A stretch of DNA of 64,000 nt from Alphaproteobacteria bacterium (GTDB lineage Bacteria; Pseudomonadota; Alphaproteobacteria; RF32; CAG-239), in NCBI GenBank assembly GCA_017528205.1, contig JAFXPE010000032.1:225517-289516 (forward strand), written 5' to 3'. The notes under the pieces were generated by a model. It was given only the letters and a program-made list of their open reading frames with translations. It ran no database searches and was not told the origin of the DNA. How positions within the stretch are numbered: the stretch's first letter is position 1; each line of letters begins with the position of its first letter. Below are positions 39,310 through 48,071 of this stretch, piece after piece. A program made the position numbers and the translations under genes.

Positions 39310-42300
39310 ATGAGTAAAGAGCCGTTAACACATTCGGACAGATATGTTCGCAAAACCAATAAAGTGATTCTGATTATCGGAATTGTTACTTTATGTGTGT
39401 TTTTGTTCGGCTTAATGCTGCTCGGAACGGAAGCTCCGGAAGAGCAGCAACACTATGAATTTGAGCATTCCATAGAAGAAGAAAGTCAGGTCGGTATAAG
39501 TGCCGAGAGCAATACTTCGGCCGAAATAGAATTTGAAAACACCGAAGATACGGAGCCACCGATAACGCTTTCGCCGGCGGAGCTGAATATGGGGCAGGTT
39601 GTTTTGGGCAACGAGGCCAGCAACGTTTTAACCATCGGCACCAATGGCAAACGCGAAATTAAAATACTTTCGGTTGAGCTTGAAGATGCTCCGTTTGACG
39701 GTTTTCATTATGAAACCAACTGCAAAGACAGAGAATTGCGCGGAAAATTGACCTGTTTGGTGACGATGAACTGGTTGCCGACGGTTGCCGCCAATGTTCA
39801 AAGCAATTTCAAAATTGTGTGGCACGAAACCAACGTTTCGGATAACAGTGCCAAGCATAGCGAAGTAACGGTTCGCGGTAGCGCCGTAACCAAGGATAAC
39901 TGCACGGTTTGCGATACCGGCGCGGTGAGCGGCACGACGGAAAACGGTGTGGACGGCGCAAAAGGCAAAATGCGCTATGCCATCGGGCCGGACGGCAAGG
40001 TTATCGGCTGGATAGATGAAAACGGCGTGGTTCATGATTTTGACGGCAATGAAATCGGCCGCGTCAACGCCGACGGTATGGTTGTCGATAAAGATGGCAA
40101 TATAATAGGTGTTGCGGCCAACGGACGTGTGATTGTCGATGAAAACGGCAACGTTATCGGTTATGTAGATGAAAACGGTGTGGCCTATGATTTGGAAGGC
40201 AATGTTATCGGCACGGTTTTGCCGGATGGTACGGTCGTTGATGCCAATGGTAATGTTATCGGCAAAGCGGTGGAATACGGCTATGTTTATGATGACGACG
40301 GTAATATTATCGGCAGAGTTTTGCCGGACGGCACGGTTGTCGATATGGACGGCAAAGTCATCGGGCATGTGGATAAAAACGGGAATGTCGTAGATGAAAA
40401 CGGCAATATTATCGGTCATGTGGCCAAAGCCGGTGAAGTTATATTAGATGATAACGGCGACGTGGTCGGTGTGGTTATGCCAAACGGCAATGTAGTTAAC
40501 GAAGACGGAGAAATTGTCGGAAAAATGAATGCCGACGGTTCGGTTGATGATGTTGAAATCATCGGTAAACGCGGCGCGGCGGCGCAAATGGTTTATGACG
40601 AAAACGGCAATATTATCGGCTATGTCGATGAAAACGGCGTGGTGCGCGATTTTAACGGCAATGTTATCGGCCACGTTGATGAAAACGGCAATGTTATTGA
40701 CGCCAACGGCAAAGTTATCGGTCATGTGAGTGACGAATGGCGCGATTTGGCATTGGATGAAAATGGTAATGTTATCGGTTATATTGATGAAAACGGTTTG
40801 GTACACGATAACGACGGTAATATTATCGGGTATGTTGATGCCAATGGTAATATAATCGGTAATAAACCGAAAATCACCACTTCGGGCAAAGCCAGTAAAC
40901 ATGCTTTGGCGTTGGATAAAGACGGCAACGTTATCGGTTGGATAGATGAAAACGGTGTGGTACGCGATTTTGACGGCAATATTATCGGTCATGTTGACGA
41001 AAACGGCAACATAGTTGATGCCAACGGCAATATCATCGGTCATCGCGGAAAAGCCGCTAATTTGGCCTTTGATAAAAACGGAAAATTAATCGGTATCATT
41101 GATGAAAACGGTGTGGTACGCGACTTTGACGGCAATGTTATCGGCCATGTTGATGAAAACGGCAACATAGTTGACGCCAACGGCAATATCATCGGTCATC
41201 GCGGAGATCCGGCAACGGTTTTGGCTATGGATGAAAACGGCAATGTTATCGGCTGGATAGATGAAAACGGCGTGGTGCGTGATTTTGATGGTAATATTAT
41301 CGGTCATGTTGACGAAAACGGCAACATAGTTGATGCCAACGGCAATATCATCGGTCATCGCGGAAAACCGGCCAAATTGGCATTGGATAAAGATGGTAAT
41401 GTCATCGGCTATATCGATGAAAACGGCGTGGTGCGAGATTTTAACGGCAATGTTATCGGCCATGTTGATGAAAACGGCAACATAGTGGATGCCAACGGCA
41501 ATATCATCGGTCGACAGGGTGGTGCCGCCAATTTGATATTTGATGAAAACGGCAAGTTAATAGGTTATGTTGATCCAAACGGTGTGGCTCGTGATTTTGA
41601 TGGTAATGTCATAGGCTATGTTGATGAAAACGGTAATGTGGTTCGCAAGGATTATTCCGGCGAAATCATCGGCAAGGTAGGCAATCGCGCAGATTTGGCC
41701 GTCGATGAAAACGGCAATGTTATCGGTTGGATAGATGAAAACGGCGTAGTGCGTGACTTTAACGGCAATATTATCGGCCACGTTGATGAAAACGGCAATA
41801 TTATAGATGCCAACGGCAATATCATCGGTCATCGCGGCGATTCCGCACTATTGGCTCTGGACGAAGACGGTAATGTCATCGGTTACATTGATAAAAACGG
41901 CATTGTGCGCAACAGCAGCAATCAAATTATCGGCATTGCCGACGCCAACGGCAATATTCGTACCTTCGGTCGCCGTATTATCGGCAGAACTTTGGATAAA
42001 AACCTGTTACCGATAACGCCGGAAGGAAGATTGTTGGGCGTGTTAAACAATCGCGGCGAAATTATCAATCAGCAGAAAGTTGTCGGCAAAATGCGTCCGG
42101 ACGGCATTGTGACGGATATTTCCGGCGCCAAAGTTTTAGCCAAAGGCGTGCGGCAGGGATATATCGTAAACTGGGGCTGTGATTTCAGCTTAAAATTAGA
42201 CCGAGACGGAGTTGTCCGTCGTGACGGCGCCGAAACCGGCTATCGGGTATACGCCGACGGCACGGTTTGGACACCGGAAGGCAAGTTTGCCGGTCAGGCC

Positions 42301-46800: not shown

Positions 46801-48071
46801 AGGTCGGTTATCGTACGCCGGACGGTATGATTGTGGATATGAATTACAATCCGATAGGCATAGAAGAAGCCAAGCATTCGACGGCAACCGAAATGTTTAT
46901 TCCGCCTGACGCTTATGGCGACGGTCGCCAATACGGAACAAAAGATGCGCCGACAAACTTAGGTGCCGGCGGCGGATACGGCCAAGGTGAACGTTATGAT
47001 CCGATTCGGGCCAAAGCCTTGCAACAGTTGCAAAACAGACGACGTATGAATATGATGGTCGGAGAATTGGCTAATAGCAATCCTGATTACAATCCGGCAG
47101 TATTTACGGGTTATGAAGAAGACGGTTGGGATAACGTGTCGCAAAATATTTCCAGCTGGCGTGTGGATATGAGCGAGATGATTTTGCAGGATAAAGGTAT
47201 TCCGGCGGTATTGGCGCGTTCCGTTTATGCTTCGGAAGGTTTGAGCAGCGATATTCCGATTACGGCAATAGTTGAGCGTAATGTCTTTGCCGAAGAGGGC
47301 AGAAACATTATTATTCCGGCCGGTTCGCGTGTTATCGGTAAAGTTTCCGGCACCGGAACCGGTGGCAACAGCGGCGGCGCGGTTAAAATTGACATCAGTT
47401 GGTCTCGTTTGATTCGTCCGGACGGTTCGCAATGGATTTTGAGCAACGCCCAAACGGCAGATGCTCAAGGTCGTGCCGGCGCAATCGGTTATTTGGATGA
47501 ACAGTTGCTGAAGAAATACAGCGTTCCGCTTATGAATACGGTTTTGCAAGGATTGGTTAATATTGCCACGGCCGGTGGTGGCGAATCAACTACAACCACA
47601 AACTCCGACGGTTCTAAAACCACAACCACTGATGCTCGTGCTCAAGCATATCAAGATGCACGTAAAGCCTTTAATGATCGTGTAGGCGATATGATTCAGG
47701 AAATTATGGATAAAAAGGCGCAAATTAAGTCGGTGGTTTATGTTCCGGCCGGCACGCGCATAATTATTTACCCGAACGAAGATTTGTGGCTCAACAGCAT
47801 TAAGCGCGATGCCAAGAGACGCGCCAACGGAGGATCTGGTGCTGGCGGAGAAGCCGATACGCTTTCCAATGGCGAAATGGGACAGGGCGGTGAAGTAACC
47901 TATGAAGGCAATTATCGTGAAAACGTACAACCGGCCCGAGCGCCGAGTAATCCGCAACCGGTAAGCAACGGCGGACAGCAACCTGTCGGTTATGTCGCTC
48001 CGCCGAGCACGCAGCCGGCTCCGTCGATGAACAGCAACGGTTCTAACGGTGACGTACCGGAGCTATTATAG
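43884..48071 (+). CDS. virB10: Giant (1395 aa) VirB10/TrbI/CagY-like protein: a long N-terminal repeat region plus a canonical VirB10 C-terminal domain
   Basis: The N-terminus is a signal/TM segment (LLIIGSMFLPMCANAA). About 1000 aa of degenerate G-x-(V/I)-I-G / DG-x-x-IG repeats follow. The C-terminal roughly 300 aa read ...IIIPAGSRVIGKVSGTG...ISWSRLIRPDGSQWILSNAQTADAQGRAGAIGYLDEQ...VVYVPAGTRIIIYPNEDLW. This is collinear with A. tumefaciens VirB10 (IPKGSRLIGQYSSG...IWTRLIRPDGVSI...GRAGMGGDVD...IHIDQGTPLVVFVARDL). The RBS is ggagg. Confidence 0.8.
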   Translation: MLQILRKTYKALLIIGSMFLPMCANAAEITAIDFNGNIIGQVISTGMVISPDGENIGTITADSLILNGSGAVIGGVVPQGIAIGMDNRLLGKIHSDGIVRSLSGRTVGTALPNGLVIDSSAEVIGAVLYPGIIYSSAGEAIGRLTGGGEYTKLEGQRVGFVSANGYAYRKSGDDYVLDGRLMSSKMVISVEGKFLGSIAPTGQIIDFEGKPVGKIHANGFAYNENGKIIGSVVATAYAFDQAGKYLGVVGYNGEVKQGEQVVAMYRADGNLVRPNGDVVGFAVDIAATANDNNGNYLGYVVPQGNIVRGKEIVGKIGAKGIIYDAKGNKIGELVKTGPVYDALARLKGQSMKNGRFVTLGGNVVGHIRGKYAFDSNGTLTGGVSEGMIAIDNTNKSLGMSNIDSGVARGSNTAKISPFGYLFGNDGKVIGAGYPMSAVYGNNGVLYSYINPNGELYRQATDVTLSEAGVAYSKNGYLGEMVNPLYALDFIGNPLGQFANGNIVLNAGKIAYKILPDGYAVETSEALSPMLTPIKGFGGNRRIALNIGGDLIGYASETGEIDGLNGNTFGRIMYNEYIADNKKSVVGKLIPFATVVNEKCSVIGVVNGRGDIVNNRDVIIGRLLPNGQAISDVGSYIGYAVFEQVLIDNDGNFAGTVHDAQGNDMNSKNIGCVNRKGIIEDDEHRQRYGVITAAPTIDFENNLFGYVLANGQVVSRNDQILGYMQPNGNVVSKSKKVLGNVMRYQVAYTDNNRFLGMIGANGEVISEKGELAGQVNFDGSIVKDGEVIGYALYDFYVYDENFVTYGYLTKDGTVLSMVGSRLGQIDRGFVVDRNGQIIARGNRDYIVRDINRNAVGELRIDGTVVDFEGQNVGYLSEGGVIRDPNGDEIAQATPYQYYVAIQKAGEVSEKIEPKDRRKVKINEAEKTEDVAATEKKVRRQKLGNRVVGIALSPDGDIIGNIYDDDTVRTDDGTQVGYRTPDGMIVDMNYNPIGIEEAKHSTATEMFIPPDAYGDGRQYGTKDAPTNLGAGGGYGQGERYDPIRAKALQQLQNRRRMNMMVGELANSNPDYNPAVFTGYEEDGWDNVSQNISSWRVDMSEMILQDKGIPAVLARSVYASEGLSSDIPITAIVERNVFAEEGRNIIIPAGSRVIGKVSGTGTGGNSGGAVKIDISWSRLIRPDGSQWILSNAQTADAQGRAGAIGYLDEQLLKKYSVPLMNTVLQGLVNIATAGGGESTTTTNSDGSKTTTTDARAQAYQDARKAFNDRVGDMIQEIMDKKAQIKSVVYVPAGTRIIIYPNEDLWLNSIKRDAKRRANGGSGAGGEADTLSNGEMGQGGEVTYEGNYRENVQPARAPSNPQPVSNGGQQPVGYVAPPSTQPAPSMNSNGSNGDVPELL

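Follow-up and report, generated by a model that had tools for sequence, protein, structure and literature searches.

Two adjacent open reading frames (ORFs) of an alphaproteobacterium probably each encode one half of a giant VirB10 protein, expanded by repeats, in a vertically inherited type IV secretion system (T4SS) of the VirB type. They lie in a stretch of 64,000 nucleotides (nt), hereafter the window (GenBank assembly GCA_017528205.1, contig JAFXPE010000032.1, positions 225,517 to 289,516), at the coordinates given for them in an earlier note that was made from the letters alone (Table 1). ORF1 (1523 amino acids, aa) would provide the inner-membrane anchor, and ORF2 (1395 aa) would be the half that is exported to the outer membrane. 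In these organisms VirB10 has grown about six-fold by arrays of 17-residue beta-hairpins and is carried as two conserved, co-translated genes, and the group with the split protein consists of widespread, uncultured Alphaproteobacteria of gut and rumen. The public records carry automatic names only (ORF2 is the TrbI/VirB10 family protein MBR3676736.1, a record of an alphaproteobacterial metagenome-assembled genome), and the full-text literature yielded no description of a VirB10 that is split or expanded by beta-flower or DUF3659 repeats.

The two genes are joined by a junction of unusual constancy. The stop codon TAA and the dinucleotide GT separate ORF1 from the start codon of ORF2, and the GGAGG noticed earlier is embedded in the last codons of ORF1. 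Three independent metagenome assemblies (ERZ28018792, ERZ27256869 and ERZ28654223) reproduce this junction identically, with an ORF1 of 1523 aa, an ORF2 of 1395 aa and 0-2 nucleotide differences over both genes, which excludes the artificial split by an indel that the earlier note had considered. The comparison set comprised 23 related loci from GTDB species representatives, and in the 21 with both genes on the contig the order virB9-ORF1-ORF2-virB11 is kept as far as the contigs reach. In all 21, as in the window, ORF1 ends in LPEVARNRRN, and the codons AAY-CGG-AGG-AAY within this end contain the Shine-Dalgarno sequence of ORF2. The distance from stop to start varies from -1 to +5 nt among the relatives and takes all three frame offsets. 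By its sequence, this is conserved translational coupling and not a frameshift. A giant gene broken by an indel, or a pseudogene, would explain the close spacing and the existence of single-gene homologues, and nothing else; with an identical junction in three assemblies, a split in 21 of 21 relatives at every frame offset, strong purifying selection on both ORFs, and a conserved leader of signal-peptide type on ORF2 that goes beyond what a frameshift creates, the probability of such an artefact or decay is close to nil.

The split is also old. The earlier note had thought of a recently divided gene, an idea that fails because the division is fixed in the 21 species and in three deep groups of split proteins, down to 40% identity, with conserved junction and leader and under purifying selection. 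Both of the two deeper groups (one at about 43% identity, the other of proteins of 1475-1888 aa) have an ORF1-like partner immediately upstream. The ratio of nonsynonymous to synonymous substitution rates (dN/dS) lies at 0.06-0.15 in every module (0.06-0.11 in ORF1, 0.08-0.15 in ORF2), and both genes are therefore under purifying selection. A relative at a dS of about 1 has an ORF1 of 1524 aa compared to 1523 aa here and no indels in the array, so over short time spans the array lacks the extreme plasticity of cagY, although the strain sample for length variation is small (three assemblies).

Both giant proteins are built from the same kind of repeat, as the earlier note had recognized; aligned with each other along about 900 residues, the arrays of ORF1 and ORF2 are homologous (27% identity, E 2e-60). 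The period, which had been read as about 13 aa, is 17 aa: in an autocorrelation of ORF1 residues 220-880, self-identity is 0.315 at lag 17 against a median of 0.09, and three units make up a super-repeat of 52 aa, six units one of 105 aa. The consensus of the ORF1 unit is D-x-N-G-N-(V/I)-I-G-x-V-D-E-N-G-x-V-x, and the motif G-x-h-h-G is found at 45 places in ORF1, where shuffles give 4.5 +/- 2.1, and at 17 in ORF2, where they give 3.7 +/- 1.8. In the DNA, Tandem Repeats Finder detects periods of 156 and 315 bp with matches of only 73-77%; the 156-bp period runs for 8.3 copies through 40600-41910 in the ORF1 array.

The repeat had been left without a named family, but it can be assigned to Pfam PF21785 (Bflower_2; ORF1 2e-87, 288.9 bits; ORF2 1.8e-46, 157.1 bits), PF21784 (Bflower; ORF1 9.5e-48, 161.8 bits; ORF2 3.2e-14, 53.7 bits) and PF12396 (DUF3659; ORF1 4.6e-37; ORF2 0.00041, below the cutoff). 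Both arrays exceed the gathering cutoffs of the first two families, which are 38 and 25. A description from 2023, based on AlphaFold models, portrays the beta-flower fold as a shallow barrel whose short antiparallel hairpins have [DNEQ]xxG at their tips; the fold has no counterpart in the PDB and no known function, and the describing paper does not mention a link to T4SSs (PMC10584680). The density of the tip motif per 100 aa is 9.0 in the ORF1 array, 4.7 in the ORF2 array and 2.4 in the TrbI domain. Similarity to RHS/YD repeats is found at the level of the whole protein (Pfam RHS_repeat 4e-26, TIGR01643 3e-15), with no single significant stretch for PF05593. Matches to WD40 proteins in a sequence search of the PDB were rejected, as one short hairpin was matched repeatedly with no significant single stretch, and the beta-propeller proposed in the earlier note fails in structure comparison as well. 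A literature search on DUF3659 turned up only a fungal lipid-droplet preprint.

The hydrophobic N-terminus and C-terminal VirB10 domain reported earlier for ORF2 are both real. The VirB10/TrbI domain matches Pfam PF03743 with 109.5 bits (cutoff 35; E 2.4e-31) and, among proteins of solved structure, ComB10 (2bhv, E 1.2e-22) as well as CagY (8cb2, 6x6j), TraF (3jqo) and VirB10 (6gyb); the alignment with ComB10 passes through the antenna region, with an insertion. The NCBIfam models for ComB10 (2.5e-34, 118.6 bits) and VirB10 (3.8e-24, 85.3 bits) both recognize ORF2, which stays below the equivalog cut-offs of 220 bits for T4SS_VirB10 and 300 bits for T4SS_ComB10. By these profile scores ORF2 is a divergent VirB10 subfamily. 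Its family contains at least 120 clusters at 40-100% identity, with lengths of about 1382-1430 aa and a few of 1475-1888 aa. The bitopic topology, a cytoplasmic tail and transmembrane anchor on the same chain as the barrel, is not found in ORF2, as the anchor is on ORF1. In its place, ORF2 starts with a leader of 24-29 aa. The n-region of the leader is basic, its core of 11-20 residues carries no charge, and positions -3 and -1 are taken by small residues, a pattern that holds in 22 of 22 orthologues. The leader is hypervariable (dN/dS 0.54-0.72 against 0.06-0.12 in the array) and directly followed by the conserved residues (A/T)EITA(I/V)(D/N)F, and its hydropathy is only 1.65. This is the signature of a Sec signal peptide that would be cleaved. 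The array that follows contains many invariant glycines and two invariant cysteines.

ORF1 begins with a short cytoplasmic tail, whose motif L-T/S-x-S-D/E-x-Y-V-R/K-K-T/S-N is invariant in the ORF1 alignment and common to the fused forms, and with the transmembrane segment reported earlier (residues 19-37, mean hydropathy 3.06; helix 11-38 in the AlphaFold2 model). The earlier description of this segment followed by about 1400 aa of repeats stands for the former and not for the latter, since the repeats cover about 1300 aa and start near residue 220, after a linker and a beta-sandwich. In Foldseek comparisons the sandwich resembles the PapD-like domain of HYDIN (2e6j; template-modelling (TM) score 0.69, target-normalised; root-mean-square deviation 3.3 A) and MSP (1m1s; TM score 0.62), and on the isolated N-module Pfam ASH matches at E 6.6e-05, below the gathering score. 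Invariant cysteines occur in the N-module (Cys138/149/198/201) and in the C-module (Cys957/1008/1030/1083), the latter with a dN/dS of 0.12; together with the cysteine pair of the ORF2 array they fit an extracytoplasmic location. In 18 species the N-module (203-216 aa) and C-module (636-638 aa) are nearly constant, while the middle array ranges from 348 to 1886 aa (14-96 core motifs). Orthologues found by an ORF1 search measure 929-1581 aa and none of them has a TrbI domain; this search did not return the closest orthologues of ORF1, and its word-based candidate step may handle repeat-rich proteins poorly. The exact ORF1 sequence is missing from a collection of 15 billion proteins that does contain the exact ORF2 sequence, and on ENA contigs ORF1 is called at 1523 aa.

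The structure of the arrays was modelled with AlphaFold2. Residues 26-1000 of ORF2, with an alignment of 66 sequences, gave a predicted local distance difference test score (pLDDT) of 89.6 and a predicted TM score (pTM) of 0.84. Such a pTM over 975 residues suggests a single rigid unit, as opposed to separate domains strung along the chain. ORF1 residues 1-1200 were modelled at a pLDDT of 77 and a pTM of 0.54, with a long strand every 52 aa that joins modules of three hairpins. As modelled, a strand pair takes up 17.5 residues, and neither array contains a helix of 4 or more residues. When compared by Foldseek with Rhs, Tc-BC and teneurin, the array shows a local 3Di match along its whole length (8qjc, E 2e-24) at a TM score of only about 0.09; as modelled, the hairpin is RHS-like locally and the overall architecture is without a solved counterpart. 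The super-repeats of 52 aa (3 hairpins) and 105 aa (6 hairpins) would be compatible with the shallow barrels of beta-flowers, into which hairpins may close with 4-, 5- or 6-fold symmetry.

Single-gene relatives of the pair bear on its origin. About 90 clusters (at least 82) of fused proteins of 2015-2609 aa align with 99% of ORF1 and have, in addition to beta-flower arrays, a TrbI domain at the C-terminus. Their N-termini have the tail motif and transmembrane segment of ORF1, and their genes occupy the same slot between virB9 and virB11, so that the CagY-like order of transmembrane segment, repeats and VirB10 domain that had been suspected in the earlier note does exist in one gene, of which the pair is the evolutionary equivalent. 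On the fused proteins ORF1 aligns anchored at the N-terminus, from 1 to about 1550, and ORF2 anchored at the C-terminus, from about 800-950 to the end. In several of them the profile of the ORF2 array falls at about 825-1410, at the same distance from TrbI as in ORF2, and that of the ORF1 C-module just upstream at about 500-1100, which makes the mapping roughly colinear. The ORF1 features shared with the fused proteins also speak to another explanation, in which ORF1 is an unrelated beta-flower envelope protein beside virB10. Beta-flower and DUF3659 repeats do occur in many proteins with no T4SS link, and ORF1 lacks a TrbI domain. A repeat family foreign to T4SSs in genes uncoupled from virB9 and virB11 had been named as what would make the giant ORFs mere neighbours; the family is indeed not T4SS-specific, yet the coupling to virB9 and virB11 is tight. 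With an N-terminal motif, transmembrane segment and ASH-like module in common with fused VirB10s, and a position that is invariant, coupled to ORF2 in every genome and present in all split groups, we regard ORF1 as a chance neighbour as very improbable.

In a neighbour-joining (NJ) tree of the TrbI domain, with 40 canonical-size outgroups, the split forms come out as one clade in 40 of 40 bootstraps. This clade is nested inside the fused forms, beside a subgroup (P0152/P0162) that also provides the best fused matches to ORF1. To our knowledge, every other VirB10 has anchor and barrel on one chain. Together with the nesting this favours one ancient fission of an already giant VirB10, which we consider likely from the sequences. 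The nearest relatives of canonical size carry no array: P0309 (512 aa) consists of a transmembrane segment, a weak ASH match and TrbI, and P0314 has a weak match to a HYDIN-like immunoglobulin (Ig) domain. The BLASTP match of the ORF1 N-module to P0309 is marginal (E 0.048), and the comparison is suggestive of an ancestor composed, before the expansion, of transmembrane segment, ASH and TrbI. Matches to "short VirB10" proteins of about 480 aa (39-49% identity) were set aside as fragments that start inside the array or linker.

The ancestor of the split pair would have been a single chain of cytoplasmic tail, transmembrane segment, ASH-like Ig domain, about 1500 aa of hairpins and TrbI barrel, which then underwent fission. 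ORF1 would retain the inner-membrane anchor and its hairpin arrays would project into the periplasm, while ORF2 would be exported and, together with VirB9 and the lipoprotein, take its place in the core at the outer membrane. As the Shine-Dalgarno sequence of ORF2 lies inside the conserved last codons of ORF1, the two products are probably made in matched amounts. In the periplasm the ORF1 C-module and the rigid ORF2 array may associate non-covalently; their constant lengths make them the obvious candidates for an interface. This association would restore the link between inner and outer membrane that is covalent in canonical VirB10 and would form a large periplasmic scaffold around the channel. 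Two co-functioning proteins, one of the options raised in the earlier note, is the reading that the data favour. The middle array of ORF1, with its five-fold length range, is no fixed-distance ruler and probably peripheral, and may represent a tolerated or adaptive expansion. More tentatively, and with less than even confidence, we propose that a non-covalent interface of two giant arrays has replaced the covalent continuity of VirB10 in a novel periplasmic cage or cylinder, of a fold without a solved structure, that the ORF1 array tunes between species; its megadalton size would follow from the multiple copies in which VirB10 is expected.

Several observations weigh against this reconstruction. 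On the fused proteins, the regions equivalent to ORF1 and ORF2 share about 300-650 residues, an overlap that a duplication would also explain. No remnant of the junction was recognizable in the fused proteins by regular expression or by profiles of 120 and 300 aa, and many positions scored near-equal, because the array is too self-similar. The branch that nests the split clade in the fused forms is short (0.012) and comes from NJ only. In an NJ tree rooted with ComB10 the root falls among the split forms, and the internal branches are very short; this tree was judged unreliable because this outgroup is distant. The five-fold range of the ORF1 middle array is awkward for a simple strut from membrane to membrane, and neither Pfam and NCBIfam searches nor hydropathy revealed a VirB6/TrbL or VirD4 gene in the operon.

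The overlap speaks for a tandem duplication, after which the first copy would have lost TrbI and become a DotF-like accessory of the inner membrane and the second would have lost transmembrane segment and ASH domain and gained a signal peptide. ORF1 would in that case be a paralogue and partner of ORF2 and not, in the literal sense, its N-terminal half. Such an event would also account for the combined length of ORF1 and ORF2, which at 2918 aa exceeds the median of the fused proteins (2274 aa), for the homology of the two arrays along about 900 residues, and for the first 300 residues of ORF2, whose best match is often close to where the fused array begins (about 360-640) and not in its middle. 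However, the self-similarity of the array predicts such overlaps under either model, the lengths 215 + 348 + 637 + 1370 = 2570 fall within the fused range if the variable array of ORF1 is a later expansion, and no genome among those examined holds two full copies as an intermediate. We therefore regard duplication as unlikely, and fission of one giant gene as the better account.

The five-fold length variation of the ORF1 middle array between species raises the question whether the arrays are mainly a device of the surface or for target contact, a role proposed for the middle repeats of CagY. They would then reach the cell surface or bind peptidoglycan, glycans or a target cell, with the ORF1 array under diversifying or antigenic pressure. 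CagY and DotG likewise combine a variable middle with a constant TrbI domain (PMC5954226, PMC6761968), and the arrays show weak, short matches to GW and LytB-SH3 wall-binding modules. This function seems rather improbable, since ORF1 is anchored in the inner membrane, the ORF2 array is N-terminal of the barrel and hence on its periplasmic side, the arrays have a dN/dS of 0.06-0.12 with no indels between species at a dS of about 1, array length is the same in the three assemblies, and the DNA repeats, at 73-77% identity, are unlike those of the recombination-prone cagY.

Table 1. Position of the split VirB10, its modules, and the surrounding T4SS and pilus-like genes in the window (aa ranges refer to the respective protein).
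Feature	Position	Strand	Basis or remark
ORF1, 1523 aa, putative inner-membrane-anchored half of split giant VirB10	39310-43881	+	homologous N-terminus in fused VirB10s
ORF1 1-38, short cytoplasmic tail and single transmembrane helix	39310-39423	+
ORF1 39-80, acidic disordered linker	39424-39549	+	pLDDT < 50
ORF1 ~85-195, ASH/PapD-like Ig-fold beta-sandwich (~110 aa)	39562-39894	+
ORF1 216-885, regular 17-aa hairpin array	39955-41964	+	autocorrelation, motif counts; length-variable between species
ORF1 886-1523, degenerate hairpin module of constant length (636-638 aa)	41965-43878	+	ends ...LPEVARNRRN
Coupling junction	43871-43886	+	GGAGG 43871-43875 in ORF1 N-R-R-N codons, TAA 43879-43881, GT, ORF2 ATG 43884-43886
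ORF2, 1395 aa, putative exported outer-membrane half; TrbI/VirB10 family protein MBR3676736.1	43884-48071	+
ORF2 1-26, predicted Sec-type signal peptide (MLQILRKTYKALLIIGSMFLPMCANA / AEITAIDFNG)	43884-43961	+
ORF2 27-900, ~50 degenerate 17-aa hairpins, 99 short strands, constant length (~875 aa)	43962-46583	+
ORF2 901-942, charged disordered linker	46584-46709	+	pLDDT ~30 at model residues 876-917; no consensus
ORF2 945-1099, three more conserved hairpins, then conserved Gly-rich segment (..LGPGGGYGQGERYDP..) into VirB10 domain	46716-47180	+
ORF2 1100-1303, VirB10/TrbI beta-barrel domain	47181-47792	+
ORF2 1304-1395, Gly/Pro/Asn/Ser/Gln-rich tail with conserved VPxLL end	47793-48068	+	composition, consensus
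Three VirB2-like small membrane proteins in tandem (117, 120, 129 aa)	20763-21955	+	leader and two hydrophobic segments each
Secreted protein, 149 aa			after the three VirB2-like ORFs
VirB3-like ORF	22477-22767	+	overlaps virB4 start
VirB4		+	between VirB3-like ORF and six signal-peptide ORFs
Six ORFs from virB4 to virB8 (232, 253, 517, 515, 485, 1493 aa)	25261-35807	+
VirB8 paralogue, VirB7-like lipoprotein, second VirB8 paralogue	35822-37674	+	family profiles, lipobox
VirB7-like lipoprotein, 62 aa	36723-36911	+	lipobox LLILSA/C; between the two VirB8 paralogues
VirB9/CagX homologue, 538 aa	37690-39306	+	Pfam CagX 1e-12; 3 nt upstream of ORF1
VirB11 ATPase, 324 aa	48082-49056	+	10 nt downstream of ORF2
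T2SSF platform protein	10505-11623	-	pilus-like cluster
T2SSE ATPase	11637-13346	-	pilus-like cluster
PAP_PilO-like protein	15149-16393	-	pilus-like cluster
Secretin	16426-18096	-	pilus-like cluster

The T4SS of the VirB type extends over about 20.7-49.1 kb of the window on the plus strand. As had been surmised, the giant ORFs are part of it: 3 nt separate VirB9 from ORF1, 2 nt ORF1 from ORF2 and 10 nt ORF2 from VirB11, and the Shine-Dalgarno sequences overlap the ends of the upstream genes (the AGGAGA of virB11 overlaps the ORF2 stop codon). This spacing and overlap point to an operon; the scan of 35-51 kb for consensus promoters and terminators, with counts not above shuffles (38 against 29.6 +/- 5.5 and 22 against 20.5 +/- 5.4), has no part in that inference. 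The genes engB, yidC, rnpA and rpmH follow downstream, also in distant relatives, and the T4SS is therefore chromosomal and vertically inherited. The six ORFs between virB4 and virB8 all have a signal-peptide-like leader, and none is polytopic or has any family match in Pfam or NCBIfam; judged by this lack of polytopic character, they are without VirB6-like features. Two of the six, with 232 and 253 aa, have a VirB5-like size and are paralogous to each other (46% identity), and the 1493-aa gene is kept in relatives. The trio of VirB8, VirB7-like lipoprotein and VirB8 is kept in loci L027, L030, L031 and L033, distant relatives included.

Further features of the operon concern single genes. The CagX match of VirB9 is limited to residues 81-327, and its C-terminal 200 aa or so show a weak match to the peptidoglycan-binding SPOR domain (E 0.0055). 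VirB11 is 91-99% identical across species (L001-L022) whose VirB9, ORF1 and ORF2 reach only 42-72%. Its dN/dS is 0.013-0.015, and its dS is also lower (0.2-0.36 against about 1); this pattern reflects unusually strong conservation, or possibly recombination or codon constraint. Two of the listed ORFs, 28493-30040 and 29859-31316 (+), overlap by 182 nt, and the true start of the latter is, from its sequence, probably an internal Met before KKWVKKIG, ahead of a hydrophobic leader at 66-84. In this clade a DUF3137 membrane protein with four transmembrane segments follows virB11 (49001/49070-50212, +) and is duplicated in the closest relative (L032 7974-10280).

The operon adjoins a divergently transcribed type IVb-pilus-like cluster (10505-20430, -), which in addition to the genes of Table 1 encodes a 614-aa protein without assignment and a very acidic protein of 541 aa. 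A second small T2SSE/VirB11-like ATPase (330 aa; 8943-9935, +) stands between an ATP-binding cassette transporter and this cluster. The window also encodes an ankyrin-repeat protein of 367 aa (3224-4327, -); eukaryote-like repeats such as ankyrin are typical of T4SS effectors of host-associated bacteria. An ORF of 788 aa without family match (53412-55778, +) has a counterpart at L027 19616-21895, and its counterpart is one gene of 759 aa or two of 488 + 262 aa in two assemblies of the same strain, a difference that a polymorphic frameshift may explain.

Of the T4SS subunits, VirB10 alone spans both membranes, and in current models its continuity is central to signal transmission. If our reading is correct, the anchor and the barrel have long been fixed as separate but coupled proteins in these bacteria, which offers a direct test of the continuity model, with the fused sister forms as a natural control: a natural experiment on the covalent continuity that is thought to underlie energy sensing and gating. 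The beta-flower/DUF3659 fold would at the same time gain a cellular setting as the periplasmic part of a secretion machine. The hosts are abundant, uncultured Alphaproteobacteria of gut and rumen, and a conserved chromosomal T4SS is likely to be important for their lifestyle.

Among known systems, the rvh layout of Rickettsiales may be compared in gene order with the B8-B7-B8-B9-B10-B11 of the window. That layout has a duplicated virB8 flanking virB7, virB9-virB10-virB11, several virB2 and expanded polytopic virB6 genes; the window has B8, a B7-like lipoprotein, B8, B9, B10 and B11 in this order with three VirB2-like ORFs, and its ORFs after virB4 are non-polytopic. To RHS/YD proteins (Rhs, Tc toxin BC, teneurin) the arrays show some similarity in hairpin sequence, at the level of the whole protein, and a local 3Di match; they do not have the closed beta-cocoon shell, and both ORFs lack the C-terminal DPxGL autoprotease motif and the toxin domain. 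They are like beta-flower (PF21784/PF21785, clan CL0395) and DUF3659 proteins in their Pfam matches, tip motif and all-beta, short antiparallel hairpins. Known beta-flowers are single domains of about 96-116 aa that often enclose a C-terminal helix, whereas here 50-100 hairpins are continuous and predicted to form one rigid body, and the central hydrophobic alpha-helix of many beta-flowers is missing from both modelled arrays.

Canonical VirB10, TraF and ComB10 share with the pair a homologous barrel, a gene position between virB9 and virB11, and a bitopic N-terminus, which is here on ORF1. They measure about 350-630 aa with a Pro-rich linker, while the present anchor and barrel are on separate chains with arrays of about 2200 aa between them. 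Canonical VirB10 forms the link from inner to outer membrane (PMC6120205, PMC9371333), and repeat-expanded forms as such are already known. DotG of the Legionella and Coxiella Dot/Icm system has a conserved C-terminal TrbI domain, a variable middle of pentapeptide repeats, a length of 1000 to >1500 aa and an inner-membrane-anchored periplasmic partner, DotF (PMC6761968), and ORF1 beside ORF2 may by analogy function as DotF does beside DotG. However, DotG has its own anchor, and here the unit is 17 aa without a match to any pentapeptide family in Pfam; the homology of ORF1 is to the N-terminal region of a VirB10, and the operon is of the VirB type (VirB2/3/4/7/8/9/10/11). CagY is also a VirB10 homologue enlarged several-fold by length-variable repeats between anchor and TrbI, and the fused relatives follow its order of transmembrane segment, repeats and VirB10 domain. 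It is one polypeptide, a feature that only the fused sister group shares, and belongs to Campylobacterota and not to gut Alphaproteobacteria. Its repeats are encoded by direct DNA repeats, which undergo in-frame recombination in the course of infection (PMC2194252, PMC3585145, PMC5954226); these are near-identical, as opposed to beta-hairpins of 17 aa with DNA matches of 73-77% and no change of length between strains or at a dS of about 1. The present pair is set apart from CagY and DotG by the type of repeat, by the scale of the array (about 2200 aa) and by the split, in which the half with the barrel carries a signal peptide. Beta-flower hairpins would be the third independent type of repeat, after those of CagY and the pentapeptides of DotG, to enlarge VirB10, which suggests a general selective pressure on this position in the secretion machine.

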